DNA of 64,000 nt from positions 677,595-741,594 of the forward strand of contig OZ246416.1 in NCBI GenBank assembly GCA_965231095.1, read 5' to 3'. Positions 33,731 through 62,066 of this stretch are shown here, one piece after another; within the stretch, counting starts at the first letter, position 1; the number at the start of each line of letters is the position of its first letter. The DNA comes from an uncultured Gammaproteobacteria bacterium. Its GTDB lineage: Bacteria; Patescibacteriota; Patescibacteriia; XYB2-FULL-38-15. The notes under the pieces were generated by a model. The model ran no database searches. It worked only from the letters and a program-made list of their open reading frames with translations, and was not told the DNA's origin. Both the position numbers and the translations under genes were made by a program.

Positions 33731-33746
33731 TTTGGCATTTTAAAAC

Positions 33747-33817
33747 CGGGGTGTAGTACAACGGTAGTATGCATGCTTTGGGAGCATGAGACCCGGGTTC
33801 AATTCCCGGCACCCCGA
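33747..33817 (+). tRNA. tRNA-Pro (TGG)
   Basis: acceptor cggggtg/caccccg, anticodon stem catgc/gcatg, loop ttTGGga. Confidence 0.85.
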
Positions 33818-33844
33818 TAAAAGTCCCGTGACGGGAATTAAATT

Positions 33845-34165: not shown

Positions 34166-34169
34166 AATT

Positions 34170-34241
34170 GCGGGCGTCGTATAATGGCTATTATGTCACC
34201 CTTCCAAGGTGAAAATGCCGGTTCGATTCCGGTCGCCCGCT
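34170..34241 (+). tRNA. tRNA-Gly (TCC)
   Basis: acceptor gcgggcg/cgcccgc, anticodon stem tcacc/ggtga, loop ctTCCaa; D-stem imperfect. Confidence 0.75.
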
Positions 34242-41985: not shown

Positions 41986-42184
41986 TTCTTTATTAAGATT
42001 ATATCAGAAAAAGGATGTGGCAGTAAAGGGCTTATTTAAAAAATAAGAAAATTTTTGTAATAGTAAGTAAAAGATTAAGAAAAAAAGAGAAGAAAAAACC
42101 TATCTTATATTTTACGACACTTGATTTTATTTAATATAAGGTAAAATTTAAGGAAGACGTTCAAAATATAAATTGTTCTCCCCT

Positions 42185-42256
42185 GCCCTCGTAGCTCAAC
42201 GGATAGAGCAAACCCGTCCTAAGGGTGAGATGGGGGTTCAATTCCCTCCGGGGGCA
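42185..42256 (+). tRNA. tRNA-Arg (CCT)
   Basis: acceptor gccctcg/cgggggc (one GU), anticodon loop gtCCTaa, T-loop ttcaatt. Confidence 0.8.
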
Positions 42257-42268
42257 AAAAATAATCTT

Positions 42269-42775
42269 ATGGCCGGAAAAGATAGATATATTATCGCTAA
42301 AAATTGGCCATTTGTTGTGGTTGGCTGTCTTGTAGTAAGGGGCGATAAAGTGCTTTTAGTCAAGGAGGCGAGAAAAGAAGCCGGGAGTTGGAATCAGCCA
42401 GCCGGTTGGTTAGAAAAATATGAAAATCCTGTTGTTGGGGCTAAAAGAGAAGCAGAGGAAGAAACAGGTTTTAGAATTAAAATTAAGGGGTTTTTGGGAG
42501 TTTACAGTTTGGATCGTAGAAAAGTAAAAAGATGGCAAAGGGCGGGGCCAGTTGATCTACATGCTATTAAATTTTTATTTATCGCAAAAGTGGTAGGAAG
42601 GGGGCAAAAATTAAATCCTCTAGAAATTGCCGAAGTTAGGTGGTTTAGTTTAAAAGAGATTAAAAACCTTCATAAGCAGAAAATTTTGCGCGATCCGGAT
42701 ATGATCAATGAGGTTCAAGATTATTTGGCGGGTAGAAGTTATGACCTTAAATTAGTTCGTCATCTTATAGTTTAA
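42269..42775 (+). CDS. NUDIX hydrolase
   Basis: Nudix box GWLEKYENPVVGAKREAEEETGF; start trimmed from 42173 because the longer frame overlaps tRNA-Arg. Confidence 0.75.
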   Translation: MAGKDRYIIAKNWPFVVVGCLVVRGDKVLLVKEARKEAGSWNQPAGWLEKYENPVVGAKREAEEETGFRIKIKGFLGVYSLDRRKVKRWQRAGPVDLHAIKFLFIAKVVGRGQKLNPLEIAEVRWFSLKEIKNLHKQKILRDPDMINEVQDYLAGRSYDLKLVRHLIV

Positions 42776-43539: not shown

Positions 43540-44223
43540 TTGTTTATGAAATATTTTTTCATAAAACTCATTATAATCACTTTTGTTTTTATTTCTCTCA
43601 TTGCTCTGTGGAAGGCGCCAGTTAGCTTGGCCCTGATGAATTCGGAGAGTTATATTAACTGGATGGATTCGCTGAATTTTGGGGGAGAAGAAACCTCCAC
43701 TTCAACAAACTATAGATTCCAAGATACTTTAGGAGAGATTGGGACAGGGGAAATTTCGAGCACCAATTATGCCGGCTTGATAGGTTTTCGCCAATCTGAC
43801 GCGGATCCCAAGATGACTTTTTCCATTTCCGATACTTCAGTGGACTTTGGTACATTGTCTACGAGCGCGGTTTCTTCGGACAGCATTACGATTACAAGTA
43901 CGACAAACGCGGTGGATGGATATATTACAACAATTTTTGAAACAGAAAATTTAAAAACCGGGGCAGGTGCGGATATTGATGATGTGGCCGATGGAACAGT
44001 GACGGCCGGTTCGGAAGAATACGGTGTCAGAACTTCCGGCGCTGACGGACAGATGAACGGGGCGGACACGGGGATTACAACTTCGCCGCAAACAGTTGCT
44101 TCTAACGCGAGTTGGATAAATGGAAGCGCGGTGACAATAACTTTTAAGGCAGCAATTTCATCGCTTACGTCCGCAGGGGCTTACGCGCACAATGTCACAT
44201 TGATTTCCACCGGAAGATTTTAA
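43540..44223 (+). CDS. Secreted beta-rich surface protein, paralog A (C-terminal ...LISTGRF)
   Basis: Signal peptide; shares ANDGY/AVDGY, EE(Y/F)GV(R/S)TS and C-terminal (F/L)ISTG(T/R)F with next gene. Confidence 0.6.
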   Translation: MFMKYFFIKLIIITFVFISLIALWKAPVSLALMNSESYINWMDSLNFGGEETSTSTNYRFQDTLGEIGTGEISSTNYAGLIGFRQSDADPKMTFSISDTSVDFGTLSTSAVSSDSITITSTTNAVDGYITTIFETENLKTGAGADIDDVADGTVTAGSEEYGVRTSGADGQMNGADTGITTSPQTVASNASWINGSAVTITFKAAISSLTSAGAYAHNVTLISTGRF

Positions 44224-44254
44224 AAATTCGCAGTTTATTATTTTTTAAAAATAT

Positions 44255-45358
44255 ATGGAAAGAAAAAAATTAGTTAAAAAAATTGTTTGGGGGACTCTTC
44301 TGAGTTTAATTTTGATGTTGGGTTTTCCGTCGGTTCCGGCGCGCGCGACGCACAGTGTTATTAAAGATACGATGAGCCGCCTCAAGGCGTCCACCGCGTC
44401 AAATCACACAATTACTTTTACGCTGGATGCGTCAACAAATATTATTGAGAATGAAACAATCACTATTACTTTTGCCGCGTCTTGGGTAGATGGGTTAAAC
44501 AGCATTGATTGCGAGGATATTGATATTTTGGATGATGGTGTGGAAGAATCAATTGCTGAGGTGGCCGTAGAGGCTTGCGCGGCCGATGCCGATGAATGGG
44601 GGGCTGTGGTTGCGGGAGATGTTCTTACTTTGACTGCTCCGTCTACGGGCTCAACTTATATTGATGCGAGCTCGGTAGTAATCATAGAAATTGGTACAAA
44701 TGCAACAGAAGAACATACTGGCAATACGCAGATTACAAATCCGGTCGCGGCTAATAATTTGGTTGTGAATATTGGCGGTACGGGTGATAGCGGAACAGAT
44801 CCGGACGGGCAATTCGCGGTTTCGATTATCGCGGAAGATCAGGTGACAGTGACGGCCACGGTTTTGCCGACTTTTACTTTTACAATTAGCGCAAGTACGT
44901 GTGCCCTAGGGGACTTGACTCTTGGCACAGTGCAAACCTGCGGTGTAACTTTAACAACGACAACCAATGCCAACGATGGTTATGCCACGACGATAGTTGG
45001 AACGGCTTCTGGCGCAGAGATGGTGCATTCCAACGCCACAGATAACATTGATAATGCCGGGGGTACAGTGGTTAGTCCTAATTCGGAAGAGTTCGGCGTG
45101 AGCACGAGCGATTCGTTGGTAGATATTGAACAATTAACTACGCACGGTAGTTGTGTATTGGCCGATGGTGTCGCTGTTGATGTTAGTGGTGTATCAATTG
45201 ATACACTTGGCGATAATACGGCCGCTTCAATCGCCTCAAATACCGTTCCGGTTTCCGCGGAAGCAACAACCGCCTGCTTTGTCGCTTCTGCCGCGGCAAC
45301 AACGGCTGCCGGCGAATATTCTTCTACGGTAACATTTATTTCTACCGGCACATTTTAA
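44255..45358 (+). CDS. Secreted surface protein, paralog B; N-terminal module duplicated in the 756-aa dockerin protein
   Basis: Signal peptide; DTMSRLK...ENETITITF...GLNSIDCEDIDILDDGVEE...CAADADEWGA...LTLTAPST module also at start of 46533 gene; ends TFISTGTF. Confidence 0.6.
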   Translation: MERKKLVKKIVWGTLLSLILMLGFPSVPARATHSVIKDTMSRLKASTASNHTITFTLDASTNIIENETITITFAASWVDGLNSIDCEDIDILDDGVEESIAEVAVEACAADADEWGAVVAGDVLTLTAPSTGSTYIDASSVVIIEIGTNATEEHTGNTQITNPVAANNLVVNIGGTGDSGTDPDGQFAVSIIAEDQVTVTATVLPTFTFTISASTCALGDLTLGTVQTCGVTLTTTTNANDGYATTIVGTASGAEMVHSNATDNIDNAGGTVVSPNSEEFGVSTSDSLVDIEQLTTHGSCVLADGVAVDVSGVSIDTLGDNTAASIASNTVPVSAEATTACFVASAAATTAAGEYSSTVTFISTGTF

Positions 45359-45431
45359 TTTTTATAAAATAATGTTTTTCCCCGCGGTAATTTACGCGGA
45401 AAGAAAAACCATAATTTAAAATAGGGGGACT

Positions 45432-46454
45432 ATGAAAAAAGTTTTTTTCGCGATTACTCTGGCTGCTTTAATTTTTGGCTTGGCGCCGGCGATCGCCTCC
45501 GCGACAACAATTTCTCCGCCGGTCATAGAATTTGACGCGCGGCCGGGGGATACAATTGTTGATGTTATTAAATTGTTTAATGAGACGGCTGAAGAAGTTA
45601 CCTTGACCGGAGAGGTGAGAACTTTTAAAGCGTTGAATGAAACCGGCGCGCCGTCATTTCTTCCCCCTGAAGAATCAACTGATTTGGCAACTTGGTTAAA
45701 ACTTGACGAGGCGACAGTCACTCTGCCGGCTGACGAGAGAAAAGATATTTTGTTTAGTATTAATGTTCCGGAAAACGCCGAGCCGGGCGGACACTTTGCC
45801 GGAATTCTTTGGACGCCGACTGGCGCACCAGCATTAGAAGGAAGCGGAGTTGGCATTACCATGAAAACCGGAACTTTGGTTTTGGTTCGCGTGGCAGGAG
45901 ATGTTAATGAGACCGGACGGCTGGCGAGTTTTACGGCCGACAGAGCTTCTTATAATTATTTGCCTGTTAATTTTTCAGTTCGTTTTGAAAATTTAGGAAA
46001 TGTTCATTTAAAACCGGCGGGCGTGATTGAAATTAAAAATTTGTTAGGAAGAAAAGTCGCCGCGCTTCCGGTGAATGGAGATTTATCAAACGTTCTCCCC
46101 GAGTCAATAAGAAAATTTGATGCGACTTGGCAAAAAACAGAAGTGCCGCTTGGCGCGTCCGAATGGCAAAGAGAAATGGACAATTTTGCTTGGGGAAAAT
46201 ATACCGCCACGCTTATTTTGGATTATGGAATAGATGGGCAACAAACATCCGCCTCGCTCGCTTTCTGGGTTTTTCCGTGGCGCGTGACTCTTTTCTATCT
46301 GGCCATAGCGATAATAATTATTCTCTTAATTATCATTGGTATTAGAAGCTATAATAAGTGGGTTATAAAAAAATTCAGTCAGCAAAACAATCAACAAAAT
46401 AATCCTCCAAGCGATTTGCCAACCGACGGAGTTGACGATCAAAAAATGGAGTAG
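45432..46454 (+). CDS. Surface protein with signal peptide, beta-rich ectodomain and single C-terminal TM anchor + Q/N-rich tail (DUF916/DUF3324, CscA-like architecture)
   Basis: MKKVFFAITLAALIFGLAPAIASA signal; C-terminal VTLFYLAIAIIIILLIIIGIRSY TM; family call by architecture only. Confidence 0.5.
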   Translation: MKKVFFAITLAALIFGLAPAIASATTISPPVIEFDARPGDTIVDVIKLFNETAEEVTLTGEVRTFKALNETGAPSFLPPEESTDLATWLKLDEATVTLPADERKDILFSINVPENAEPGGHFAGILWTPTGAPALEGSGVGITMKTGTLVLVRVAGDVNETGRLASFTADRASYNYLPVNFSVRFENLGNVHLKPAGVIEIKNLLGRKVAALPVNGDLSNVLPESIRKFDATWQKTEVPLGASEWQREMDNFAWGKYTATLILDYGIDGQQTSASLAFWVFPWRVTLFYLAIAIIIILLIIIGIRSYNKWVIKKFSQQNNQQNNPPSDLPTDGVDDQKME

Positions 46455-46532
46455 GGGATTCGCGCGGAAAAAAAGAAATTTATAGAGCTTAGATAAAAGC
46501 GTAAAAACAAAAATCAAAATTAAAAAACGTCA

Positions 46533-48803
46533 ATGGGGGAGTTTGTAAGAAAAAAAAGTATTGGTATTTTAATCACGGTTCTTACCCTGACAAGTTTTTT
46601 CGTTGGATTCAATCAATCTGCTGCCAGCAAACTTTCTTCGGTCAGCGACACGATGAGCAGGCAGAAAATCGGAGTATCCGCCAATCATGAAATTATTTTT
46701 ACTTTAGCCGGCGGATCGGCAGTCACGGAAAATGAAACGATTACGATTATTTTTCCGACTGGTTTTGCTTCGGGGTTAAATAGTATAGAGTGTGGTGATG
46801 TTGATTTATTGGATGATGGAGTTCAAGAAAATTTTGCGGCGTCGCCCGGATGCGCGGCGGATGCGGACGAATGGGGCGCGGCGGTCAGTACAAGGACATT
46901 GACACTTACGGCGCCGTCTACGGCCGCGACTTATATTAATGCGAGCTCAGTTGTCACTTTGCGGGTTGGAACAAATACAACAGAAGAAGGGGTAGGCAAT
47001 GCGCAGATTGTTAATCCTGGGAGCGCGGGAAGTAAGGTAATAAATATTGGGGGAACTTTTGGCGATTCAATCGAGATTGCCATTGCCATTGTGACAAATG
47101 ATCAAGCCGCGGTTATCGGGACTATTCCGACAGGCGATACTCCGGGCGGCGGTTCACCCGGGTCAGACACGACGCCGCCAATTATTTCAAATTTAAGAGT
47201 GGAAAATATTTTACAAACTTCGGCCACGGTTCTTTGGGACACAAATGAACCGGCGACTTCAAGAGTGAATTATGGCTTGACGAGTGGCTATGGATCGTCC
47301 ACTACGGGCGACGGCGGAGGATTAGTTCTTAGCCATAGAGTTGATCTGACCGGACTCACGGCAGATACAATTTATCATTTTAATGTAGTGACAGCCGATT
47401 CGCTTGGACATACAACGACTACAGTTGACGATACTTTTAGAACGCTTTCCGGCCTAGATATTACCGCTCCTGTAATTTCCAATATTCAAGTTATAAATAT
47501 TACGGAGACCGGCGCGACTGTGACATGGACAACAAATGAGCCGGCAAATTCAAAAGTAGAATATGGTTTGACCGACGCGTATGAATTGGGAGAAATAACC
47601 GCCGCGGATTTTGTGGCTTCGCATAGTTTGCCGCTCGCGGGATTAACAGGAAACACAACATATCATTTCCGCGTGACGTCGGCTGATTCTTCCGGTAATG
47701 CCGCGACTTCTCCTGACGGCACTTTTACGACAATTGCTCCGGCAGACCTGACAGCGCCAATTATTTCAAATATCAGAGTTATAAATATTACAGAAAATTC
47801 CGCGACTGTTACTTGGGACACGAATGAGGCGGCAAATTCAAGGGTGCGATATGGTTTGACGGCAACTTACGGATTGGGAAATATTTTTTCCGCCGATTTA
47901 GTTTTGGCACACAGTATAAATTTAAGTTCCTTGACTCGCAGCACAATTTATCATTTTGAAATTACTTCATCTGACAGCTCGGGGAACACGGCCGTTTCCG
48001 GAGACAGAACTTTTTCAACTTTACCGGATATAATTCCGCCGGGAAATGTGACAGATTTTTTAGCCACGCCAACTGCGGCGAGAACAATTTTATTGACCTG
48101 GGTTAATCCAACTGATACTGATTTTGCCGGAGTTTTAATTAAGAGAAGTTTTACTGGGTATCCGGCAAGTCCGGCTGACGGAGAATTAGTTTTTGACGGA
48201 GTAGCAACCTCCTTTCCCGATACAGCAATCACTCCCGCAAATTATAACCGACCAATTTACTACACAGCTTTTGCCTATGACACAACTGGAAATTTTGCTT
48301 CAGGCGCTCTGGCAGAAGCGACGATTGAAGTGTCCCTGACATTAGACGTTAAGGCCTGGCCGGAAAAAAGATGGCCGCGAAGCGGAAATTGGTCAACCAG
48401 AGGCGCGGTGGAATTGAGGGATGTGGCAACATCAAATATTTTATATGAAGATACTGTTGCGACCTCAGACCTTGGTTTGGGCTCGGTGGAATTTCCCACG
48501 GCACCGATTGTAAATTATGATATTAGCTTTAAAGGTTTGTCGCATTTAAGAAAAATTTTGCGCGACGCTCCACTTTCGGGCGGAGTAAATTCATTGGATT
48601 TTACTTTAGCAAATACTTTTTATCTTTTGGCCGGAGACGTTCATCGCTCGTCTGATAATATGGTAAACGCCCTGGATATTTCCACCCTGCTCGGTTCTCT
48701 TTCCACCGGCAACGAAGTTACTGATTTGAATCATGACACCGGAGTCAATTCTTTGGATATAAATATTTTATTGGCCAACCTGATGGTCAGGGGAGACGAA
48801 TAA
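46533..48803 (+). CDS. Secreted multidomain protein: paralog-B-like N-module, three FN3-like repeats, C-terminal dockerin
   Basis: Three ~100-aa repeats (P(V/I)ISN(L/I)(R/Q)V...TV(L/T)W(D/T)TNE...YHF.(V/I)TS(A/S)DS.GN); C-terminal SDNMVNALDISTLL and DLNHDTGVNSLDINILLANL match dockerin Ca-binding DxNxDGxVNxxD repeats. Confidence 0.7.
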   Translation: MGEFVRKKSIGILITVLTLTSFFVGFNQSAASKLSSVSDTMSRQKIGVSANHEIIFTLAGGSAVTENETITIIFPTGFASGLNSIECGDVDLLDDGVQENFAASPGCAADADEWGAAVSTRTLTLTAPSTAATYINASSVVTLRVGTNTTEEGVGNAQIVNPGSAGSKVINIGGTFGDSIEIAIAIVTNDQAAVIGTIPTGDTPGGGSPGSDTTPPIISNLRVENILQTSATVLWDTNEPATSRVNYGLTSGYGSSTTGDGGGLVLSHRVDLTGLTADTIYHFNVVTADSLGHTTTTVDDTFRTLSGLDITAPVISNIQVINITETGATVTWTTNEPANSKVEYGLTDAYELGEITAADFVASHSLPLAGLTGNTTYHFRVTSADSSGNAATSPDGTFTTIAPADLTAPIISNIRVINITENSATVTWDTNEAANSRVRYGLTATYGLGNIFSADLVLAHSINLSSLTRSTIYHFEITSSDSSGNTAVSGDRTFSTLPDIIPPGNVTDFLATPTAARTILLTWVNPTDTDFAGVLIKRSFTGYPASPADGELVFDGVATSFPDTAITPANYNRPIYYTAFAYDTTGNFASGALAEATIEVSLTLDVKAWPEKRWPRSGNWSTRGAVELRDVATSNILYEDTVATSDLGLGSVEFPTAPIVNYDISFKGLSHLRKILRDAPLSGGVNSLDFTLANTFYLLAGDVHRSSDNMVNALDISTLLGSLSTGNEVTDLNHDTGVNSLDINILLANLMVRGDE

Positions 48804-48807
48804 AGAT

Positions 48808-51435
48808 ATGAGGAGGATAATTTATACAATTGCTGCGATTGGTTTCAGTTTTCTTCTCGGCCAAGCCGCGCTTGCCGCTCGCTTTGAATTATCTCCCGCT
48901 TCAACTGGTTTTATTACCGGATGCGATTCGGCGGTGAGCATTGAAATTGATACTGAAGGAGTAACTTCTGATGCGGCAAATGTTTTGGTTCATTATGATC
49001 CAACAAAAATTGAAATAGTTGATACAAATCCATCGGCAGCCGGAATCCAAATCAGAAATGGAAATGCTTACGAGGCTTATGCTGACAATACTGTTTTGTC
49101 GGGAAGCGGAGTGATTCGCTTAACTGGATTTTCTTTTATAAGTCATCTTTCCGGCCGAGCAACTTTCGGAACAATTATTTTCCGCGGACGACCCGGAGCA
49201 GCTGATGCAAATTTCACAATTGAATATGTGGCAGGTAGCACAACCGACAGCAATATTGCCGAATATCTTACAAGTGATGACCTTTTAACCGGAGTAGGAA
49301 ACGGCGCTTACACTTTTCGCGGCGGATCGTGCGTGGCCGACGTTGTCCCACCAAATGTTTTAAACCCAACTCCCGCACCAGATGAACGCGACGTGCCGCT
49401 TGATACAAATATTACTTTTGATATTCGCGACGCTCAGTCCGGAGTTGACTTGGATACCTTAACAATAAATGTTGACGGAACAATTTATACGCGCGACGGA
49501 TTAAGCAGATTTTCTTTTGTCGGGACGCCGGCGTCCTATGCCGTGGCAATAAACCCCAACACAGATTTTATTTTAGGTTCGCCGGTGCTTGTGGAAATCA
49601 ATGCTTCTGATTTTTCCGGAAACAGCATGGCTCCGTATCGTTATATTTTTAATCAGCCGGCCGCTCCGCCGCCAGTTCCGCCATCATGCGCCGCGCTTGG
49701 TTGCGCCACTCCGACTGAATGTACCGCCGATCCGGTTTTGCCGGAAGATATTGATGAAGAACCGACCGTTCCTGAATCGCAACAACTTTCTTTCTCGGAT
49801 TTTTCTTTTTACGGCGCTGATGGAACAATCCAACTTTTACCAAATCGAAATAATGAAATAACAACTCTCGCCGGGAGCTCGGTAATTGTTTCCGCCGCGG
49901 CGAGCAAATTTCCTCGTGAGGTGGCGCGGGTCGTCATAACCCTAAACGGTCGGTCGTATCTTCTCGGTTATAATTTGACGGCAGATGCGTATCAAACAAT
50001 TTTGCAAATGCCCGCCGCCGGATTGCATTCTTCAATAATTTTGATTGATTACGCGGACGATTCGCACGATCGCGTAGAGGGCGCTTTTTCACTTTTATCC
50101 CAAGGTTTTGTTTGGCAAGGAACAACGGCAAATAAATTATCCGGCGCAACCGTCACGCTTTACGAAAGTTCTCCCGCGTCTCGCGTTTGGGATGCCGCTC
50201 TTTATCGTCAAGATAATCCAATAACAACTAATGCGTCCGGCCAATTTTCATATCTCGTTCCGTTAGGTCGTTATTATTTAGTAATTTCAAAAGAGGGCTA
50301 TCGCGACCAAACCACGCCGGTTTTTGAAGTCGCAAACAATGTTGTAAATCCGAGCGTGGAAATTCTCGTCGTCCCTCCGCCGCTTGCCGAAGTTTGGGAT
50401 CCGGCCGCGCCCGTCACGGAAAATTTACAAAATGTTATTGAAAATTTAGGCCAAAAAACAATTTACGCAAGTGAAGTTTTACAAAAAGATGTTTTGGATA
50501 ATCCGGCGGTGGAAGAAAGTACGGAAAATATTGCCGCGCCGGCCGTGGCCGCCGTGGCCGTTGTCACTTACGGCACCGCCATTTCTCTTGGTTCGCTTTT
50601 GCCATTTTTACAATTACTTTTTACCCAACCGATTTTACTTCTTTTTCCAAAACGGAGAAAAGGTTGGGGAACGGTTTATCATTCTTTATCAAAAATGCCG
50701 GTGGATTTGGCGATTGTTCGTTTGTATGAAAAAGTGACAAATCGCTTGGTGCAAACTCGCGTGACGGATAAAGAAGGGCGCTTCGCGTTTTTCGTCCAGC
50801 CCGGACAATATTTTATCAAAGTAATAAAACCCAATTTTTCTTTCCCGACAAATTTTTTGAAAAATACAAAAGAAGATGTTAAATATTTTGATCTTTATCA
50901 CGGCGAAGAAATTACCGTGACGGAAAAAAATACTCTCGTCACGCCAAACATTCCGATTGATCCGGAGGGAGAGGGGAAAATGTCGCCTGACAAAAAAGTT
51001 CTCTTTGTTCATTTTGGAAGAAAAATTCAAAACATTATCGCGCCGTTGGGAATTGTCGCCGCCACTATTTCAGTTTTGGTCTCGCCGCAAATTTGGATGG
51101 TCGCGATTTTGGCCGGACACTGTTTACTCTATGCTCTTTTCCGACGATTGGCGAGAAGTAAAAAACCAAAGAGCTGGGGAATTGTTTATGAAAGTAAAAC
51201 TAAATCTCCGGTCGGACTCACTGTCGCAAGAATTTTTGAAACCGAATACAACAAACTTTTGGAAACACAAGTGACCGACGGCCGCGGCAGATATTCATTC
51301 TTGGTCGGCTCGAACGCCTACTACGTGACTTTCAGCAAACCGGGTTTTGAACCGAAGAGAACCGAGACGGTTGATCTTCGCGGAGCAAAAGAAGGAGGAG
51401 CGGTGGGGTTGGATGTGGGGTTGGATAAAGTATAG
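48808..51435 (+). CDS. Membrane-anchored scaffold-like protein: N-terminal cohesin-like domain, Ig-like region, carboxypeptidase-regulatory-like domains, two TM segments
   Basis: Signal peptide; FELSPASTGFITGCDSAVSIEIDTEGVTSDAANVLVHYDPTKIEIVD...FGTIIFRG resembles type-I cohesin (YDPxxLEI); CarbopepD_reg-like (TVTLYESSPAS...SGQFSYLVPLGRYYLVISKEGY; VRLYEKVTNRL...GRFAFFVQPGQYFIKV); TM ~50500-50640 and ~51050-51130. Confidence 0.65.
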   Translation: MRRIIYTIAAIGFSFLLGQAALAARFELSPASTGFITGCDSAVSIEIDTEGVTSDAANVLVHYDPTKIEIVDTNPSAAGIQIRNGNAYEAYADNTVLSGSGVIRLTGFSFISHLSGRATFGTIIFRGRPGAADANFTIEYVAGSTTDSNIAEYLTSDDLLTGVGNGAYTFRGGSCVADVVPPNVLNPTPAPDERDVPLDTNITFDIRDAQSGVDLDTLTINVDGTIYTRDGLSRFSFVGTPASYAVAINPNTDFILGSPVLVEINASDFSGNSMAPYRYIFNQPAAPPPVPPSCAALGCATPTECTADPVLPEDIDEEPTVPESQQLSFSDFSFYGADGTIQLLPNRNNEITTLAGSSVIVSAAASKFPREVARVVITLNGRSYLLGYNLTADAYQTILQMPAAGLHSSIILIDYADDSHDRVEGAFSLLSQGFVWQGTTANKLSGATVTLYESSPASRVWDAALYRQDNPITTNASGQFSYLVPLGRYYLVISKEGYRDQTTPVFEVANNVVNPSVEILVVPPPLAEVWDPAAPVTENLQNVIENLGQKTIYASEVLQKDVLDNPAVEESTENIAAPAVAAVAVVTYGTAISLGSLLPFLQLLFTQPILLLFPKRRKGWGTVYHSLSKMPVDLAIVRLYEKVTNRLVQTRVTDKEGRFAFFVQPGQYFIKVIKPNFSFPTNFLKNTKEDVKYFDLYHGEEITVTEKNTLVTPNIPIDPEGEGKMSPDKKVLFVHFGRKIQNIIAPLGIVAATISVLVSPQIWMVAILAGHCLLYALFRRLARSKKPKSWGIVYESKTKSPVGLTVARIFETEYNKLLETQVTDGRGRYSFLVGSNAYYVTFSKPGFEPKRTETVDLRGAKEGGAVGLDVGLDKV

Positions 51436-51451
51436 AAGCAGATTCAGTAGT

Positions 51452-51489
51452 TCCCCTCCCTTGATGGGAGGGGATTGAGGGGAGGGTGG
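51452..51489. repeat. G/C palindrome tcccctccc-ttgat-gggagggga + ttgaggggagggtgg upstream of DUF559 gene
   Basis: Mirror partner at 51826-51863 (cacccctctccc ... ccctctccc-acaa-gggagaggg). Confidence 0.6.
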
Positions 51490-51492
51490 TAA

Positions 51493-51840
51493 ATGAATCA
51501 TTTAATCACATTTGCCAAAAATTTAAGAGAAAATTCCACTGACGCAGAGAGATTATTGTGGCACTACCTTAGAGCAAAACAATTTGGTGATTTAAAGTTT
51601 AGAAGACAGCAGATCATTGGAAAATATATCGTAGATTTTGTTTGTTTTGCTAAGAAGATTGTTATTGAACTTGATGGAAGTCAACACGCAGATGTAGATA
51701 ACAAACTAAAAGATAAAATAAGAGATAGGTGGTTAGGAAGTCAAGGATTTATTGTTCTTCGTTTTTGGGACAATGATGTTTTAAAAAATATTGAAGGAGT
51801 TTGGGGTGAAATTGAAAAGCAGTTACACCCCTCTCCCTAA
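51493..51840 (+). CDS. DUF559 endonuclease-domain protein (Vsr/restriction-endonuclease-like fold), probable selfish element
   Basis: 115 aa, ...DFVCFAKKIVIELDGSQHAD...; flanked by CCCTCCC/GGGAGGG palindromes; strong GGAGG SD unlike neighbours. Confidence 0.7.
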   Translation: MNHLITFAKNLRENSTDAERLLWHYLRAKQFGDLKFRRQQIIGKYIVDFVCFAKKIVIELDGSQHADVDNKLKDKIRDRWLGSQGFIVLRFWDNDVLKNIEGVWGEIEKQLHPSP

Positions 51841-51998
51841 CCCTCTCCCACAAGGGGAGAGGGGAAAAACACAACGTTCTTCGGCAGAGATTTCATCGTT
51901 TAGTTGTTTCTAAAAGTAAGACAAAAAGGTAGAAATAAAAACCCCGCCTTCGCTAAAGCTATGGCGGGCGAGGAAAAACAAAAACAAAAAGTACCCAT

Positions 51999-54900
51999 AT
52001 GTTTAGTCCAGGAGGAGAAAAACCTAATATTGTAATTAAATCCCAAGGCGGAACCAACTTGACTCTGTTGGTGTTTGTCTTGGGTATTTTGTCATTAACG
52101 AGCGTTGGAATAATGACGCTCTCGGTCGTGGAGCAACTCCGGCCGGTGGCTTTTACGGCAATCAATAAACAACTTAATTATCAAGGCAAACTGCAAAACG
52201 CGGGGGGTATCACCCTTCCAGACGGGAATTATTCAATGAAGTTTTCCGTCTACGACGCGGCCGCGGCCGGCACGCGGCTTTGGACAGAATGCGGTACGGT
52301 CGGCACGCCAACGGCGCGAACCGTCGCGGTCGCGAACGGAGTTTTTTCGGTGCTGCTCGGCGATACGGCTTCCGGCGCTTGCCCGGGCCCGGCGAATGCC
52401 AACGCCATCACTTTGGATTTTAACAGCGACGCATATTATCTCGGTTTGACGGTTGAAGCCGACTCGGAAATGACGCCGAGAAAACGTCTCGGCGCTTCGG
52501 GCTATGCTTTTAACGCCGATTTATTGGACGGCCTTAATACTTCCGCCGCCGGCGGCTCAAACGCTTTCGTGCCGGTGACGGACGCGAGCGGCCATTTAAC
52601 TTTGACACAAAATTTAACTTTGGGCGGAGTGTTTAAAAATTCCGACGGCTCTGCCGCTTCGCCTTCCTATACTTTTACGAACGATCCCAACACAGGTTTT
52701 TATAGCGCGGCGGGAAATAATATTGGAGTCGCGGCAAATGGCGCGATGATTGCATATTTGATGGCGACGACCAATTACACTGATTCGTATTTCTATTCTC
52801 CAAGATTTATCACGCCGGCAACAACAAATTACCCGATGACTTTGACCGGAAGAATAGATGATGGAGCAGCCGCGGTCGGAGTGATTTTAGACAACTCCAC
52901 AACTTTGGCAACGGCGGGCGCGAAGATTGTCTCCTTTAAAAACAACACCACCGAAAAAGCCGCCATAGGTTTGAATGGCGAAGTTATGGCAGGGGCTGGG
53001 ACGGCTTTATTGCCCGCCCTTTCATTTTTAGGAGATCCAAATACCGGTTTTTATACCTACTCGGCAAATCAAATAGGAATCGCCAACGATGGAGGAATCA
53101 CCGGCGTCTTTTCTTCGGGTTCTCTATATATCAATTATATATTGGCGCTTTCCGGGAACACTTTAAACCTTACCGGTTCAATGGCAGACGGAGGAACGGC
53201 AGTTGGCGTGAAATTGGGTTCTTCTGTAGACCTTACAGTTGCGGGAAGTAAGATTGCTTCTTTTGTAGACAATAACACGACCGAAAAATCCGCTATTGGG
53301 CTTAATGGCGAAATAATGGCCGGAGCGGGAACAGCGTTGTTGCCTTCATTAAGTTTTCTCGGCGACCCGAATTCTGGAATGTATACTTACGCTTCCGATA
53401 CTTTGGGTTTTGCCGTAGGGGGGACAGCAGTCGGAGTCTGGGACGGCTCCACGATTTATGTTCCGGCGGTTCATCCTCTCGCTACTACGGCGTTGACTTT
53501 GAAGGGTAGGGTAGCAGACGGCGGAACCGCGGTAGGCGTGATTTTGGACAACACAACTTCCCTGACAACTGCAGGAGCAAAATTAGTTAGCATTAAAAAT
53601 GCTACAGTAGAAAAAGCATATATTGATAAGGATGGTAACGCCTACCTCCCCGGATTAAATGTTTCCGGCCTCACCGCCTCTTTAGCTGTCTACACCGACG
53701 GATCAAAAAATTTAACCTCAACCGCTCCGACTTCCGGCGCGATTGGATATTGGTCTCGCGCCACGACAACTTTGTCTCCAACAACGGCGAATGATAATAT
53801 TTCGGTTAGTTCAAATGTTACCGGAGCGGCGATTACCGGAACAGCTTCCGCCACCGGCGCGGTCATAAACTATGGCGTCTACGGCACTGCCGCAGGCAAC
53901 TCCGCCAAGGGCGTTTACGGAAGTGCCACCGCCACCGGCGCAGTGTTAAATTTCGGCGGAGATTTTTACGCGGCGGGCAATAGCGGCCAGGCCGTGCGCG
54001 GAACGGCTTCCGCCACCGGCGCGGTGACAAACTACGGCGGCGTTTTCTATGCCGCGGGTGACACGGGTTTTGGTATTGTTGCCGACGCGACATCAACTAA
54101 TGCCGGACAAAATTTTGGCGGATATTTTTATGCCAGAGGCACTACCGGCGTTGCTGTTTTTGGCAATGCCCCGGCCACCGGTGCTGTCACAAACTACGGC
54201 GGTAGTTTCCAGGCGGCGGGCAATAGCGGCCAAGCGGTGCGCGGCAATGCCACGGCCACCGGCGCGGCGGCAAACTATGGCGGCACATTTTATTCAGCGG
54301 GTAATTCCGGCGTAGCGGTTTATGGCTCGGCTTCCGCCACCGGCGCGGTCACAAACTACGGCGGGCAGTTTTATTCAGCCGGCGATACTGGTATGGCCGT
54401 TTTTGGTTACGCCACCGGCGCTGGCCTAAACTATGGCATTTATGGTTCCACAAATTCTGCCTCCGGATGGAGCGGATATTTTAACGGCGGTTTGGGTATG
54501 TATGCTTCCGCGGCGAGAATTAATTCTCTCACCGCTTCTTCCGCGGTCTATACCGACGCGTCAAAAAATTTAACTTCCACCGCTCCGACTTCCGGCGCGA
54601 TTGGATATTGGTCTCGGAGCAGTACAACATTAAGTACGGCTACAGCCGGCGACATAGTTTCTCTTTCCGGCGGTTTGAATATGAACGCGAGTCCGATTAC
54701 CGCTTCGTATATTTCCACAAATCCTTGGGGAACAAACTCGGTTGGTTCGGCAAACGGCGTGGGCCTGCAGATGAATCGGTTGCTCGGCGCGAACACCGGA
54801 CGCTATACCGTCACTTCAAGCGGCATTAATACAACCTCTGTTTTGTTTGATAATTTTTATGATTCCGCGGGAACCATTGCGGTCGGGGACACGGGCGTTA

Positions 54901-57900
54901 TTACAGTTGATTTTAATCCTCAACTTGCTTGGACAGCCAGCACGGCAACAGGTTTTGTTTATCAGAACGGAATAATTGTAATGAGTTTTTATAATACAGT
55001 TATACCGACCGACGTGACAGTGGAAGTTTATAGATGTTCGCCAAACGTTGATTGCGCGGCCGGGACAGGAACTGACGCTTGGGTGACGATTTACAGCACA
55101 ACAACCAACGATAAAAATCCTTTGGTTATCAGCCCGACTCCGTCTGTCAATTATATTAAGAGAATAAGATTTACTTTTGCCGATGGCGATCCGACTTATG
55201 GTTCATGGATTTCTGAATTGGAATGGTTTCCGACTCGTGACGCTTCGGCAAACCAATTGGCTGTTCTTCCAAAATATTTCAACCAAAGCCTAGACGTTTC
55301 CTGGACGAGTTGGAATATGAAAAAAGTTGCCGACTGGAGCACGACCGCGACAATTTCAAACGCCGGCGCGGCGTATTTTGCCGGACCGGTTGGTGTAAAT
55401 GATGCCGGACCCGACGCTTCTTTGGAAGTTGTAAATGACGGCTCGGGGGATTCTTTCTTGGTCGCCGATACTAATGATGGAGATGCTACGCCATTTGTGA
55501 TTCAAGCAGATGGGGATGTTGGTATTGGAACAGCGGCACCAGCTGCTTTATTACACATAGCAAAAGACTCAACATACAATAGTGAGGCAGCGGCAGGCAT
55601 AAAAATAACTGATTCAACTTTAACTGATACTGGTCTTCTTTTGGGCGCCGACGCGACAAACGATATTGCCTACATCCAATCAATGGATCCGGGAACGGGT
55701 TACACTAGGGCGCTTTCAATAAATCCTAATGGCGGAATGACAAGATTATTTATGAACAGGGGCGCAGCGGCTGGAACAGGTATTTCTTGGTATTTACCAA
55801 CTTTTACGGCGTGGGCGGAATACATGGCTCAGGCGACGCAAACCCTAGCCGGTCCGACGGCAAACATTACTGCTCCTTCGGGAACGATTGTTACCTCGTG
55901 GGCACTCAGAAGTTTTATTGAAAATGCCTCTAATTACGGTTGGACTTTTGAATCGGGAACATCAACTGGTCAGCCGAGTGTAGTGGCGGAAATTAGATCT
56001 AGCGACGGAACAATCAGATCAAATACTAGCGTTCTCGCTGCCGTGAGTATGGGCATCGGCGACGATACCCCCGACGCTTCTTTGGAAGTTGTGAACGACG
56101 GTTCGGGAGATTCGTTCTTGGTCGCCGATACAAATGATGGCGACGCTACGCCTTTTGTAATTGACCCCGACGGAGATGTTGGCATTGGAACAACAGGACC
56201 TCTCACTAAATTTCATGTAAATAGCGCGAATACATTAACCGGTTCTTATCATCAGGCCGTGATAACCTCAAGTGATACGGCGGCGATTGATAAGGGCGGG
56301 TCAATTGGTTTTGGCGGAGCTTATACGGGAACAACCCTGACACAGTGGGCGGGCATCTCGGGAAGAAAGGAAAATGTGACGGCCGGAAATTATGCCGGCT
56401 ATCTTGCTTTGGAAACAAGAGCAAATGGTGGAAATCTTACGGAACAAGTGCGTATTGATTCCGCGGGAAGTGTTGGTATTGGAACAACCGGACCGGACAG
56501 AAAATTGGATGTGTTGGCCGCCTCAAGCCCGCAATTGCGTTTGACTCAAGTTGACAATACCACTTACGCAGATTTTCAAGTTGATTCCAACGGTGATTTG
56601 ATAATGAATGTTGATGGCATCTCAAGCCAACTGGTTTTAGATAATGGCGGGAATATCGGGATTGGAACCGCGGCGCCGGCCGGGGCCTTGGATATAGTTT
56701 CCGCAAACGCCCCCACCTTGCGTCTCGCGACGAACGCGACCGACGCTACGGTTAAATACGGGTATGTCGCTTCTCGCCATTATACGAATGCCGAGCAAGA
56801 TCTTATGGTATTTATGAGTGGAAGTTCCGCCACGGAAAATAGCATTCGTTTGGGCGGAGGATCAGGATCTTTTAATGCGACAAATAGAATATCTTTTTAT
56901 ACGGCCGCGGATCAAATAACTTTGGACGGAACCGAAAGAATGAAGATAGATTCATCGGGCAACATTTGGATAAATTCTCTTGACGCCTCTTCAATCGTCT
57001 ACACTGACGCTTCAAAAAATTTAACTTCAACTCCTCCGGGTGCGGGAACGATCGGATATTGGTCTCGAGGTGGGACGACTTTATCTCCGGCGACGGCGAA
57101 TGATGTGGTTTCCGTTTCGGGCACTGGCGCGACAGCGATTACCGGCACAAGTTCAGCCGCGGGAGGCAAAGGAATTTATGGCACAGCGACCGACGCGACT
57201 GCTGTTGCAAATTACGGAGTTTATGGAACAGCCGCTGGGACAGGAGCTCTTTCTGCCGGCGTTTACGGCGTAGCTTCGGGCGCGGCGAATTCCGTTACCG
57301 GCGTATATGCTGAGGCTTCGAATACGGGCGCTTATGAAAATTACGGCGGAGCCTTTTTTGCGCGGGGAGAGACCGGCGTCGGCATCTACGGCGAAGGAGT
57401 TTCTACTGCCGCGGCTGTAAATTACGGCGGAAAATTTTCTGCTCATGGTAAGGCCACTGGTTCAGCCGCTGTTTACGGTGCGGCGCCCGAGGCCGGAGCG
57501 TTCACAAGTTATGGCGGATATTTTACGACAGTTAGCGATACCGGCAGAGGTGTTTACGGCTCGGCTACGGCTTCCGGCGCAGTCACAAACTACGGCGGAT
57601 ATTTTACCTCGGCCGGAACAGGCATTCTGACAAGTGGTGTTTACGGAGAAGCTTCTGGCGCGGCAAATAATATCGCAGGAATTTATGGCAAGGCGTCAAA
57701 TACAGGGGCTTATACAAATTTCGGCGGGGTGTTTTACGCCGCCGGAGAAACGGGCATTGGTATTCGCGGTGAGGCTACTTCCACCGCGGCGGCCATAAAT
57801 TTTGGCGCAAAGTTTTACGCGAATGGCGCAGCATCAGGTACGGCTGGCGTTTATGGACAAGGCGTTGATACCACTGCCATCGTTAATTATGGAGGATATT

Positions 57901-60900
57901 TTAATGCAAGAGGAACCGCTACCGGAGCAAGCGGTGTTTATGGAGAAGCAAGCGGCGCGGGCGCGGTTTACGGAGTTTATGGAAACGCTTCAGCCACCGG
58001 CGCAGTCACAAACTACGGCGGCGTTTTTTACGCCGCAGGTGATTCCGGCAGAGGTCTCTATAGTAACGCCACCGCCACCGGCGCGGTCACAAACTACGGC
58101 GGTTATTTTTCCGCCGCGGGTAATTCCGGCGCTGGTATTTACGGCACGGCCACCGCCACCGGCGCGATCACAAATTACGGCGGCGTTTTTTACGCCGCGG
58201 GTGATTCCGGCGCTGGCGTGTACGGCACGGCGACGTCTACTACGGGGACAAATTTCGGCGGATATTTTATTGCGGCCGGAACGGGTAGCGATACGGCCGG
58301 GGTTTATGGTTCATCTACCGGCACAGGAGGGACCAAAGCGCTCTATGGCGGGCGTTTTATCGCGGCAGGGGCGGTTACGGGAACAGCCGGCGTTTACGGT
58401 TCGGCGTCCGGCGCGGGAACGGTTTATGGCGTTCAGGGAAATGCTTCGGACACCGGCGCGGTGACAAATTATGGCGGATATTTTACGGCGGCGGGCGATA
58501 CCGGTCGCGGCGTCTACGGCGCGGCAACCGACTCGGGTGCGGTTGCAAATTACGGCGGATATTTTACAGCCGCGGGGACAAGCAGTGCGTCCGGAATTTA
58601 TGCTGAAGCAACGGGCGCAGGTCTGGTTAGCGGTGTTTATGGGTTAGCTAGTGACGCGACTGCCGGAACAGCTAATTTTGGAGGGTATTTTGAAGCTAGG
58701 GGTCCTCACAGCTGGAGTTATGGAGTCAAAGGTTATATTCCGAATAGCGTTGGTGGCAAAGCCGTTTGGGGCCACGCCGCGGAAACAACTTCAACAAATT
58801 ACGGAGGTTATTTTAAAGCGGATGGCGCGGGTGCCGCGGCGGCTGGTGTTTATGGCTGGGCTTCGGGGGCGGCCGCGGTCTACGGCGTTCAGGGGTATGC
58901 TTCAGATGCTACCGCCGTGACAAACTATGGCGGGTATTTTTCTGGTGGCGGGCAAACCGGGCGCGGGGTTTATGGTTCGGCCACTTATACTGGTGCGACG
59001 ACAAATTATGGTGGATTTTTTGAAGCGGCTGGAACTTCTTTCGCGACGGGCGTTTATGGCCGAGCGACTGGGGCGGGCACGGTCTACGGTGTTCAGGGAA
59101 TCGCAAGCGACACCACTGCTGTGACAAACTATGGCGGATATTTTATAGGATGGGGAGATACGGGATATGGTGTTTACGGCGAAGCGGGAGATACCGGCGC
59201 GGGCGCAAACTACGGCGGATATTTTAAGGGAAGAGGGAGCGGAGGAGCTTACGGGGTTTATGCTCTTGCTGACGCGGCATCCGGAACAAACTATGCTGTT
59301 TATGGCAACGTAACTTCTTCAACCGGTTACGGCGGTTATTTTACCGGCGGTTATGGACTTTACGGAAGCCGCGGACAAATTGCTAGAGCGCCGAGCGGTA
59401 ATGATACTTCTTATGCCCTGGTTGTTGAGGGCGCGGTTTGTATTGATGATAGTTCGGCAAATTGTCCGAGTACGCCAACTTCGGGCACGCTTTATACTGA
59501 AGGCGCGGCTTTGCAAACTTTTGACTTAGCCGAACTTTATGAATCAACCGAAGCGCTCGCGGCAGGTGATGTGGTAAGTGTTGATACCGGTAGCGCGAGA
59601 AAAATAGTGAAGTCAACCGAAGCATATCAAAATACAACAATGGGAGTTATTTCTACCGCTCCGGGTATTACTTTGGGCGGATGGAGCGCCGGACCAAATC
59701 AATATCCGGTGGCTTTGGCTGGCCGCGTGCCGGTAAAAGTGAGCGATGAAAATGGACCGATCGCGATCGGCGATATTTTAACTTCGTCTTCTACAACAGG
59801 CGTGGCAATGAAAGCAACTCGTCCGGGACAAAAAATCGGCGTGGCGCTTGAAGCGTGGAGCGGAACGGGCGTTGGAGTTCTTGAAGTATTTATGGCCCCC
59901 GGCTGGGATTCTGCCGGAACAATTGCCACTGATGGCACAGCAATTTTCTTGAATGATACTTTTACTTTTAATAAATTGGATACTGCGGATAATATTATTC
60001 AGGGGTATGGTTCAAAAGGTTTGTCTTTCCGCGGATCAGGATGGGACGGCACGGCAGGGCAAAATGTTGAAATGAAACTTTTGAGTAAAGTTACTGACGC
60101 GACAAATTATAAACTCGCAGTTTTAAATAATGCGGGTGAAGAAGTGGCTTATGTTGGAGGAGATGGATCGTTTGGAGTTACCGGAAAATTTTATCCGGCG
60201 GCAACGACCGGAGCGCAAACTGACGCGTATATTTTCTATGCCGCAAATTATATGCGAACCAATGCTGATGGTTGGTCAACCGGTTCGTTTGATTTCGCGG
60301 AAATGTTTTTGTCGCACGAGTTGCTCGAAGCCGGCGACATTGTCACGCTTGATGAAGCAACAAATGAGTATGTTAAAAAATCAGTCGCGGCTTATGATAA
60401 TATGGCGCTTGGTATTGTTTCCACAAAACCGGGATTTTTAGCCGGAACAAACGTTGACTTTAATAATCCTTCGGCAGACCAAGGGTATCCGATTGCCTTA
60501 GCCGGACGCGTGCCGACCAAGGTTTCCGCGGAAAACGGGCCGATTCGTCCGGGCGACTTTTTAACAACTTCCGCGACCTCGGGGGTAGCGATGAAGGCGA
60601 CCGAGTCGGGAATGATTTTGGGCACGGCGCTTGAAAGTTTTGACGGGCAGGGAATCGGGCTGGTAAAAGTTTTTGTAAATTTATCTTGGTACAACGTGGC
60701 AAGCGAATCAACACCGGTTGGTGAAATGGCGCAGCTCACGTTGACGGGCGATTTGAACATGGCGGGAAATTATATTTTAAATGTTGGGAAAATTGTCGGG
60801 GTGGATGAAAAATGGAGTATTGATGAAAATGGAATTTTGAAAGTGAAATTGATAGCGGAAGACGCGAGCGAGAAAGAAATGTTTGGATTGACTTCGGCCA

Positions 60901-61849: not shown

Positions 61850-62066
61850 ACAAATAGCAAATTGTAAGCGAGTTGTGCCTTCGGGTACGGGTCATAACTC
61901 GTATATAATATCAACTCCCCACCGCAAGGTGAGGAGTTGTTGTATTCAATTAAATATTTTTATTTTTTGTGGTATAATATATGAAAGAGGAGGATTAGTG
62001 GATAAGCTGAAGAAAGAGAAAAAAACAGAGAAAAACAAAATTTAATATAAATACATAAGTTTTTCT

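Follow-up and report, generated by a model that had tools for sequence, protein, structure and literature searches.

We report that two consecutive genes in a 64-kb window of contig OZ246416.1 (the whole stretch of DNA analysed, 64,000 nucleotides; positions are counted from its first letter) encode a dockerin module (Doc) and a cohesin module (Coh), and that they follow genes resembling those of a Pam pilus, a type of pilus known from the candidate phyla radiation (CPR). Specifically, a 756-aa protein with a signal peptide ends in an X-like module followed by a dockerin (X-Doc), and the adjoining gene encodes an 875-aa membrane protein that begins with a cohesin. We propose, with a probability of about 0.7, that an X-Doc:Coh joint non-covalently holds the base of the pilus to its membrane anchor, the two proteins being the two halves of that base. 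Cohesin–dockerin pairs are known above all for linking the parts of cellulosomes; a connector of this type appears to be reused here at a pilus base, in bacteria that have neither an outer membrane nor sortase-type anchoring and live attached to hosts.

A first-pass annotation of this DNA had placed a docking pair in these two genes. Both open reading frames (ORFs) and the peptides it quoted are present, at residues ~700–756 of the 756-aa protein (48630–48800) and ~24–175 of the 875-aa protein (48877–49330), and the CPR origin that it suspected is supported. The two genes and their parts are:

46533..48803, + strand: candidate terminator/base subunit, 756 aa (signal peptide, pilin N-domain, donor strand, four FN3-type domains, X module, dockerin)
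46617..47132, + strand: pilin-like N-terminal β-sandwich with linker/donor strand, approximately residues 29–200 of the 756-aa protein
47169..48320, + strand: fibronectin type III (FN3) stalk, approximately residues 213–596 of the 756-aa protein (Pfam)
48321..48617, + strand: X-like β-sandwich module, residues 597–695 of the 756-aa protein
48618..48800, + strand: dockerin module, residues 696–756 of the 756-aa protein (Pfam, ortholog profile)
48808..51435, + strand: membrane anchor, 875 aa (ORF listing, Pfam, hydropathy)
48877..49362, + strand: cohesin module, residues 24–185 of the 875-aa protein (AlphaFold2, Foldseek, Pfam in relatives)
49363..49677, + strand: Big_5-like Ig domain of the 875-aa protein (Pfam Big_5, E = 0.047; homologues)
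49765..51432, + strand: membrane-anchor region common to fused homologues, residues 320–875 (alignment to P0029, CarboxypepD_reg)
50530..50646, + strand: hydrophobic span 1, residues 575–613 of the 875-aa protein, followed by KRRK (Kyte-Doolittle)
51025..51129, + strand: hydrophobic span 2, residues 740–774, probably a transmembrane hairpin, with K/R-rich flanks (Kyte-Doolittle, charge)

The 875-aa protein begins with a divergent cohesin

Searched in isolation, residues 24–183 of the 875-aa protein matched a single Pfam family, Cohesin (PF00963), at E = 0.036 and 14.7 bits, below the gathering cut-off of 24.1 bits. A word-indexed homologue search with the isolated module returned no matches and a full-length query was needed; this retrieved 35 homologues, mostly from Patescibacteria and one of them named Candidatus Falkowbacteria, across which the N-terminal module is well conserved. 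The AlphaFold2 (AF2) model of the module, built on the homologue alignment, is all-β, with a predicted local distance difference test (pLDDT) score of 79 and a predicted template modelling score (pTM) of 0.75. Foldseek analysis against the PDB revealed that the best 39 matches of this model were all cohesins (E from 1.6e-6 to 1e-3, template modelling scores 0.6–0.7, maximum 0.71). These matches span types I, II and III, together with archaeal (Archaeoglobus) and Clostridium perfringens cohesin-like modules, and since the scores for the three types were about equal, the subtype was left unassigned. At the level of sequence, searches of the PDB with the module and its profiles (phmmer, hmmsearch) gave chance-level matches only, such as HIV gp120 and LptA, and the cohesin profile matched 1g1k_A weakly (E = 0.46).

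To extend the family, we searched exhaustively with the cohesin profile and recovered at least 2,380 cluster representatives (50% identity) at E ≤ 1e-3, including 211 at E ≤ 1e-30. Among 39 diverse relatives retrieved with the module profile at E ≤ 1e-40, 20 matched Pfam Cohesin, the best at E = 1.1e-8, and no other family recurred. We conclude that the N-terminal module of the 875-aa protein is a very divergent yet genuine member of the cohesin superfamily. Almost all of the best 150 representatives share one layout, in which a signal peptide is followed by the cohesin, a Big_5 domain, sometimes further Ig-like domains, and a membrane anchor; none of these 150 carries a dockerin. Big_5 follows the cohesin in 32 of 32 Coh-bearing homologues and in most of 145 representatives. 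A few of the best 150 contain two Coh-Big5 units. Tandem units are seen in the membrane-anchored relatives P0158, P0159, P0160, P0163 and P0164, which are potential bivalent sockets.

The 756-aa protein ends in an X-like module and a dockerin

The last 60 residues of the 756-aa protein, searched alone, likewise matched one Pfam family only, Dockerin_1 (PF00404; E = 0.0012, 19.4 bits, cut-off 22.9 bits), and the Dockerin_1 match of the full-length protein was weak. These residues are strongly conserved in about 30 orthologs of similar length. Dockerin_1 was matched by 26/26 ortholog tails, the best at E = 4.5e-6, and one homologue (P0049) has a precomputed PF00404 match. The second loop, DLNHDTGVNSLD, is followed by a helix and has the canonical D1/N3/D5/V8/N9/D12 residues; in an alignment of the 26 C-terminal regions these (D135/N137/D139/V142/N143/D146) are invariant, with the pattern D-L-N-x-D-x-x-V-N-S-L-D. 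The first loop, GDVHRSSDNMVNALD, also followed by a helix, is atypical: it keeps D5/N9/D12 and has either a two-residue insertion or non-canonical positions 1 and 3. The pattern of this loop in the 26 sequences (G-D-x-x-x-x-x-D-N-x-V-N-x-L-D) is conserved together with its two-residue insertion, and a similar insertion is found in the known XDoc chain 5k39_B.

A profile of the 26 tails gave 15 matches in the PDB, all of them dockerin-bearing chains, with 5k39_B the best (E = 1.5e-5). They include the type II X-module–dockerin chains 5k39_B, 4wi0_B, 2b59_B, 3kcp_A, 4u3s_B and 5g5d_B, and the alignments to these chains also take in about 60 residues of the domain that precedes the dockerin. In the AF2 model of a 160-aa X-Doc construct, this preceding domain is a seven-strand β-sandwich (pLDDT 72–90) directly N-terminal to the dockerin; its fold matches were modest and not specific. 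X accompanies Doc in 32/32 Doc-bearing homologues. The dockerin part of the model has helices at residues 117–127 and 144–153 as expected, but at a pLDDT of 43–59, so the dockerin assignment rests on sequence profiles. An X-Doc dyad like the type II cellulosomal ones is a reasonable reading, less certain than that of the cohesin.

Both family assignments of the first-pass annotation therefore stand, on the ortholog tails and their PDB profile for the dockerin and on the fold and Pfam matches for the cohesin. The Pfam searches of the isolated modules bore them out in part, each returning the predicted family as sole match but below its gathering cut-off; structure prediction gave the cohesin β-sandwich and did not confirm the dockerin fold. 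The label 'type I' for the cohesin had to be dropped, given that the best dockerin matches are type II XDoc chains and that none of types I, II and III stands out among the matches of the cohesin model.

Split and fused homologues meet at the X-Doc/Coh junction

The 875-aa protein consists of a signal peptide, cohesin, Big_5, a Pro-rich linker, a β-sandwich, CarboxypepD_reg, a transmembrane segment, a second CarboxypepD_reg, a transmembrane hairpin and a third CarboxypepD_reg. Pfam analysis gave CarboxypepD_reg at E = 1.2e-19, SdrD_B and the weak Big_5 match (E = 0.047), so that the CarboxypepD_reg domains and membrane spans described at first pass are confirmed. After each hydrophobic span come a K/R-rich motif, (K/R)xWG(T/I)VY, and then a CarboxypepD_reg-like β-sandwich (50647–51024 and 51130–51432, residues ~614–739 and ~775–875). 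By the positive-inside rule, both of these C-terminal β-sandwiches are predicted to be cytoplasmic, which would be an unusual site for such a fold.

In some Patescibacteria, the stalk of the 756-aa protein and the anchor of the 875-aa protein are joined in one chain. The fused homologue P0029 (1113 aa) aligns to residues 29–597 of the 756-aa protein, thus through the stalk, and to residues 320–870 of the 875-aa protein; the anchor alignment, to P0029 residues 537–1090, has 35% identity over 563 aa (E = 8e-97). What P0029 is missing is exactly the X-Doc tail and the signal-Coh-Big5 head. Across all retrieved homologues, Doc-bearing, Coh-bearing and fused proteins form mutually exclusive classes. 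The 32 Doc-bearing proteins all carry X, and 31 have the pilin-like N-domain and none an anchor; the 32 Coh-bearing proteins all carry Big5, and 28 have a transmembrane anchor and none a Doc; among the 29 fused proteins, all from Patescibacteria, the pilin-like N-domain is found in 23 and Doc, X, Coh or Big5 in none. The fused gene and a distant split pair (L003/L004) occupy the same operon slot, after homologues of the tip pilin, pilin and chaperone and before a homologue of the giant protein; for the fused form the slot was compared at one locus (L001).

We considered whether the split could be a frameshift or an assembly artefact of a fused gene, and rejected this because the split forms hold about 480 additional residues (X-Doc, a second signal peptide and Coh-Big5) and recur in many independent assemblies. 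The most economical reading of these comparisons is that the base-to-anchor link is covalent in some lineages and would be formed by X-Doc:Coh here.

Gene order was surveyed in 23 loci that were found via the cohesin alone, with one genome per species, in Falkowbacteria, Dojkabacteria, Saccharibacteria, Peribacteria, Gracilibacteria and unclassified Patescibacteria. In 19 of the 23, the cohesin gene adjoins one whose product ends in X-Doc, and in 18 this neighbour lies directly upstream on the same strand; L006 and L007 show the same pairing. As for the other four loci, upstream sequence is missing in one, another is fragmented and a third has a very weak match. The proteins that carry X-Doc differ widely. 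They are pilin-N-domain–FN3 proteins in L008–L010 and proteins of 515 and 677 aa in L012 and L022, and the commonest kind, 200–255 aa in total, has only a signal peptide and a short strand-like segment besides X-Doc. Existing annotations call the X-Doc and cohesin proteins no more than hypothetical, 'Ig-like domain-containing' or 'fibronectin type III domain-containing'. Three cohesin-bearing contigs (L020, L028 and L030) come from metagenome-assembled genomes (MAGs) labelled Bdellovibrionales, Gammaproteobacteria and Chloroflexota, and the X-Doc/Coh pair of L020 is a typical one, pointing to CPR contigs that were mis-binned or to transfer beyond the CPR.

Fusion homologues, the shared slot and conserved adjacency are three independent lines that argue that the modules of the two genes belong together. 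They lend support to the docking pair of the first-pass annotation, in which a membrane-anchored protein would receive an FN3 protein, and most of the evidential weight for the pairing is carried by the fused homologues and the pilus context. Two points weigh on the other side: binding, like the terminator role, is deduced purely from comparative genomics, and the dockerin fold was modelled at pLDDT 43–59. The two modules could accordingly have cohesin-like and dockerin-like folds without binding each other, the tail being a Ca2+-binding stabiliser or a binder of a ligand or host glycan and the head an independent adhesin, with the genes adjacent for no other reason than a role in one surface structure. 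Partnerless non-cellulosomal modules of both kinds are widespread, according to an account of Peer et al. (2009) in PMC2930009. We nevertheless consider this unlikely, since it leaves unexplained why fused homologues have lost X-Doc and Coh-Big5 together, precisely at the junction, and why X-Doc genes of very different cargo lie beside the cohesin gene in 19/23 loci. A mutually binding pair is thus preferred.

One dockerin and one cohesin in the window

If the cohesin does bind dockerins, it could be a general socket in this genome for several dockerin-tagged surface proteins, including the giant fibres encoded downstream, as the first-pass annotation had suggested. Outside the window there are observations in its favour: a Gracilibacteria MAG (L029, 1–6720) encodes, just ahead of a cohesin gene, a protein of at least 2240 aa with X-Doc at its end, from which it follows that giant proteins can be cargo in other CPR lineages, and some relatives carry the tandem Coh-Big5 units. 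Within the window, family hidden Markov models (HMMs) found exactly one dockerin and one cohesin, in the 756-aa and 875-aa genes, and a six-frame scan of all 64 kb found one canonical D-x-N-x-D-x-x-V-N-x-x-D loop. The complete 3118-aa giant protein contains neither module and has its own N-terminal transmembrane segment, and no dockerin is present in the visible 647 aa of the next giant protein, whose gene runs off the window so that its C-terminus lies outside. Elsewhere there is one X-Doc gene per cohesin gene. The giant fibres are thus unsupported as further cargo of this single-cohesin anchor in the window, which covers 64 kb of an 886-kb genome, and a multi-cargo scaffold seems about as improbable as non-binding modules; we retain a dedicated pair, with the 756-aa protein as the plug.

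The pair lies in a Pam-like pilus operon

Three genes upstream of the pair, on the same strand, place it in a pilus context:

43540..44223, + strand: PamT-like tip pilin, 227 aa (NCBIfam matches; kept in syntenic loci)
44255..45358, + strand: Pam-like pilin, 367 aa (N-terminal β-sandwich, linker or donor strand, C-terminal acceptor domain)
45432..46454, + strand: putative membrane-tethered pilus chaperone, 340 aa (signal peptide and C-terminal transmembrane segment, operon position, homologues)

In the Pam system, pilins have an N-terminal β-sandwich and a linker strand, which each subunit donates to its neighbour's open C-terminal domain, the tip pilin is PamT, and the PapD-like chaperones carry a C-terminal transmembrane helix (bioRxiv 10.64898/2026.03.03.709456). 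NCBIfam models of the CPR Pam pilus (NF058579 and NF058581) were used to assess the window genes. The 227-aa protein matched CPR_pilus_PamT (E = 4.1e-18, 65.7 bits, below the cut-off of 240) and CPR_Pam_pilin_C (E = 5.7e-9), and residues 213–367 of the 367-aa pilin matched CPR_Pam_pilin_C (E = 2.4e-7, 30.9 bits, below the cut-off of 55). Pam-model matches in related loci are likewise consistent but under the curated cut-offs, and the PamT-like gene is conserved in syntenic loci. The 340-aa protein has a signal peptide and, by hydropathy, a C-terminal transmembrane segment at residues 276–312; this segment and its operon position match PamC/PamD, and syntenic loci encode homologues at E = 1e-42 to 1e-61. 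It gave no informative match in Pfam, NCBIfam or PDB sequences, and no relatives of the pilin or chaperone were found by sequence among solved structures in the PDB.

The 756-aa protein is linked to these pilins by its own sequence. Its N-terminal ~200 aa align with residues 3–206 of the upstream pilin at 49% identity (E = 4e-52), and the alignment ends where the acceptor domain of the pilin starts; CPR_Pam_pilin_C had no match in the 756-aa protein (NCBIfam), and hydropathy revealed no transmembrane segment in it. The stalk comprises three FN3/Pur_ac_phosph_N repeats and a fourth FN3-like domain (Pfam fn3, E = 3.4e-17; Pur_ac_phosph_N, E = 1.2e-22). The first-pass description of a secreted FN3 protein fits its signal peptide and FN3 content, but the protein does not look like a generic one, as it starts with a pilin N-domain and donor strand in a Pam-like operon. 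A subunit of this kind would donate a strand yet could not accept one, which is the logic of a chain terminator, and the protein looks like a pilus terminator or base subunit. In the fused homologues, the same pilin-N-domain/FN3 subunit continues into a membrane anchor. For comparison, PamR of the Pam system, in which FN3 domains are combined with an N-terminal strand and a transmembrane helix, has been proposed as both filament terminator and anchor (bioRxiv 10.64898/2026.03.03.709456).

Some loci of the minimal X-Doc proteins also have chaperone-like and Pam-like pilin genes close by, among them L007, L017, L018 and L021, and probably the locus of P0033. Between its signal peptide and X, a minimal X-Doc protein has the segment DVQVSARVAG-C, DVTVSANVVG-C, SVTVEAVIAG-C or TVYVRGTVVVGP. 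These segments resemble the pilin linker strands DQVTVTATVLP and DQAAVIGTIPT of the window, a resemblance to be read with caution since short β-strand patterns are easily over-read. The minimal proteins might be adaptors made of a donor strand and X-Doc, a suggestion to which we give low weight.

Proposed anchoring mechanism

We envisage that the 756-aa protein would be exported and that the last Pam-like pilin would receive, in its acceptor domain, the pilin-type linker strand of this protein; the filament would end there, since the 756-aa protein has no acceptor domain. The four-domain FN3 stalk would then extend, with the X-module–dockerin dyad at its end, and X-Doc would plug into the one cohesin, at the N-terminus, that the 875-aa protein has, probably in a Ca2+-dependent manner. 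The 875-aa protein would in turn be fixed in the cytoplasmic membrane by its transmembrane segments. From the pilus to the membrane, the order would be FN3 stalk, X, Doc, Coh, Big5 and transmembrane segments. A pull on the pilus would thus act on the N-terminus of X-Doc and on the C-terminus of Coh. This loading matches the native geometry of the XMod-Doc:Coh adhesion complex of Ruminococcus flavefaciens, which withstands 600–750 pN (PMC4266597). By analogy, the joint may share the high force resistance that cellulosomal XDoc:Coh anchors show in this geometry.

The same contact could instead be transient and serve assembly. The anchor protein would then be a platform on which the terminator, or a minimal X-Doc adaptor, is brought close to the membrane-tethered chaperone while donor strands are exchanged, and the finished pilus would be released or held otherwise. 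This would suit Pam pili, which have no dedicated usher or trans-envelope machine (bioRxiv 10.64898/2026.03.03.709456), as well as the chaperone-like genes near the pair in several loci and the 'commonplace' affinities of cellulosomal Coh–Doc pairs (dissociation constant about 20 nM). It fits poorly with the X-Doc dyad and load geometry, which match the anchoring type of cohesin–dockerin complex, and with the fused homologues, which join the same stalk permanently to the same anchor. Because this link is covalent, we favour a permanent tether and regard a transient contact as slightly less probable even than the two alternatives above.

A broader reading would extend the anchoring joint across the CPR as a plug-and-socket system, in which Coh-Big5 proteins (the clusters of at least 2,380 representatives) are membrane sockets, neighbouring genes encode X-Doc plugs, and the non-covalent joint is a mechanically robust yet exchangeable one for Pam-type pili and further host-contact filaments, with split and fused forms as evolutionary interconversions. 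The plugs may range from ~200-aa adaptors through FN3 pilus terminators to giant fibres. We put this forward tentatively, as a possibility rather than our expectation.

Other features of the window

Seven genes from 43540 to 61355 are co-directional (ORF listing). The last two, downstream of the anchor gene, are:

51493–51840: DUF559/endonuclease-like gene, 115 aa, between anchor gene and giant gene (Pfam, E = 6e-40)
51999..61355, + strand: giant repeat protein, 3118 aa, with its own N-terminal transmembrane segment (ORF listing, six-frame scan)

A small 89-aa gene of the 23S_rRNA_IVP/bAvd family lies between the X-Doc gene and the cohesin gene of L003 (12329–12598); this gene and the DUF559 gene of the window are apparently small accessory or mobile genes inserted at operon junctions. 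The 3118-aa protein and the product of 62059–64000, which runs off the end, are paralogous giant surface proteins with an N-terminal transmembrane segment and NYGG-type Gly/Ala/Thr-rich repeat arrays, and the first of them ends in a Pro/Glu/Ser-rich tail. Homologues of the 3118-aa protein follow the candidate terminator gene in L001, L003 and L009. A 'tail fibre-like protein' has been described beside pam operons (bioRxiv 10.64898/2026.03.03.709456), and the giant repeat proteins may correspond to it.

DNA polymerase I is also split in the window, into a 5'-3' exonuclease (36343–37257, 304 aa) and a 3'-5' exo/Pol A protein (37282–39063, 593 aa), and is a single gene in the syntenic L001 and L003 (899/879 aa), a second split-versus-fused case in this neighbourhood. 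A complete 16S rRNA gene (31625–33159) is followed by tRNA-Ile, Phe, Pro and Gly (33358–34241) and then by protein-coding genes. No 23S rRNA gene was found within the 64 kb, so the rRNA genes appear to be unlinked. The NUDIX ORF as listed (42173–42775, TTG start) overlaps tRNA-Arg (42184–42257); its true start codon therefore lies further downstream.

Significance and comparison with known systems

Already known are non-cellulosomal cohesins and dockerins, the use of X-Doc:Coh as a cell-surface anchor and the Pam pilus, the last of these since 2026. Our search of the literature on cohesins or dockerins together with pili or Patescibacteria/CPR found no prior description of the present arrangement, be it a cohesin–dockerin joint at a pilus base, transmembrane-anchored Coh-Big5 sockets or a conserved X-Doc/Coh gene pair in the CPR. 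If the proposal is correct, it would add an anchoring component to the Pam pilus model and suggest a function for thousands of Patescibacteria proteins annotated as 'hypothetical', 'Ig-like' or 'FN3 domain-containing'. Split and fused forms would amount to a natural experiment in which a peptide bond is replaced by a protein–protein joint under mechanical load, and the family would supply new, highly divergent cohesin–dockerin pairs for protein engineering.

The closest known systems are the type II XDoc:cohesin anchors of Clostridium thermocellum, in which XDoc modules of CipA/CipB bind cell-surface cohesins (PDB 2B59, 5K39, 5M0Y, 5G5D, 3KCP). In contrast to these, the anchor described here is an integral membrane protein with transmembrane segments and not an SLH or sortase-type cell-wall anchor, and its cohesin is N-terminal and always followed by Big_5. 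The cargo is a pilin-like FN3 protein rather than an enzyme-loaded scaffoldin, with no carbohydrate-active modules, and the proteins are from the CPR, with sequences under the Pfam thresholds and a cohesin assigned to no subtype.

The CttA XMod-Doc:ScaE cohesin complex of R. flavefaciens (PDB 4IU3; PMC4266597) is alike, on the proposed reading, in that a single load-bearing X-Doc:Coh joint connects the cell to an external attachment, with X-Doc loaded from the N-terminus and Coh from the C-terminus; 4iu3_A, 4iu2_A and ScaE (2zf9) are among the fold matches of the cohesin model. The two differ in cargo, anchor type and dockerin insert pattern, and force resistance in the present case is argued by analogy. 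Cohesins and dockerins outside cellulose degradation are also represented by the toxin/glycosidase complexes of C. perfringens (PDB 2JH2, 2W1N) and the cohesin of Archaeoglobus fulgidus (PDB 2XDH), all three among the fold matches; they serve enzyme assembly or have an unclear role, and there is no pilus anchor and no socket embedded in a membrane among them. The 'dockerin-domain' protein SEML1_0315, which is essential in Southlakia epibionticum (PMC10633639), was considered as a possible member of such a pair, and no link was found: it is a 927-aa stand-alone Ig/FN3-type protein encoded beside a hydrolase gene and a tRNA gene.

The single-chain Patescibacteria homologues (P0029, P0070, P0071 and P0091) share the pilin-like N-domain, FN3 stalk, CarboxypepD_reg/transmembrane anchor and operon slot with the split pair. 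They differ in being covalently continuous, without X, Doc, a second signal peptide, Coh or Big_5; P0091 is MBU2613348.1, annotated as 'carboxypeptidase regulatory-like domain-containing protein'. PamR of Candidatus Mycosynbacter amalyticus (bioRxiv 10.64898/2026.03.03.709456) is similar in its pilus operon, with tip pilin, pilin(s) and a transmembrane-tethered chaperone, and in having an FN3 stalk, a strand able to complete the last pilin and no acceptor domain, and is proposed to stop growth and tether the pilus to the membrane. PamR unites two FN3 domains, a bare N-terminal strand and a C-terminal transmembrane helix in a single chain, whereas the 756-aa protein has a full pilin N-domain, four FN3-type domains and no transmembrane segment, the anchor being the separate 875-aa protein, to which X-Doc:Coh would join it. 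No sequence similarity to a PamR model was detected (NCBIfam). The 756-aa protein would be a functional analogue of PamR and is not a member of its family.

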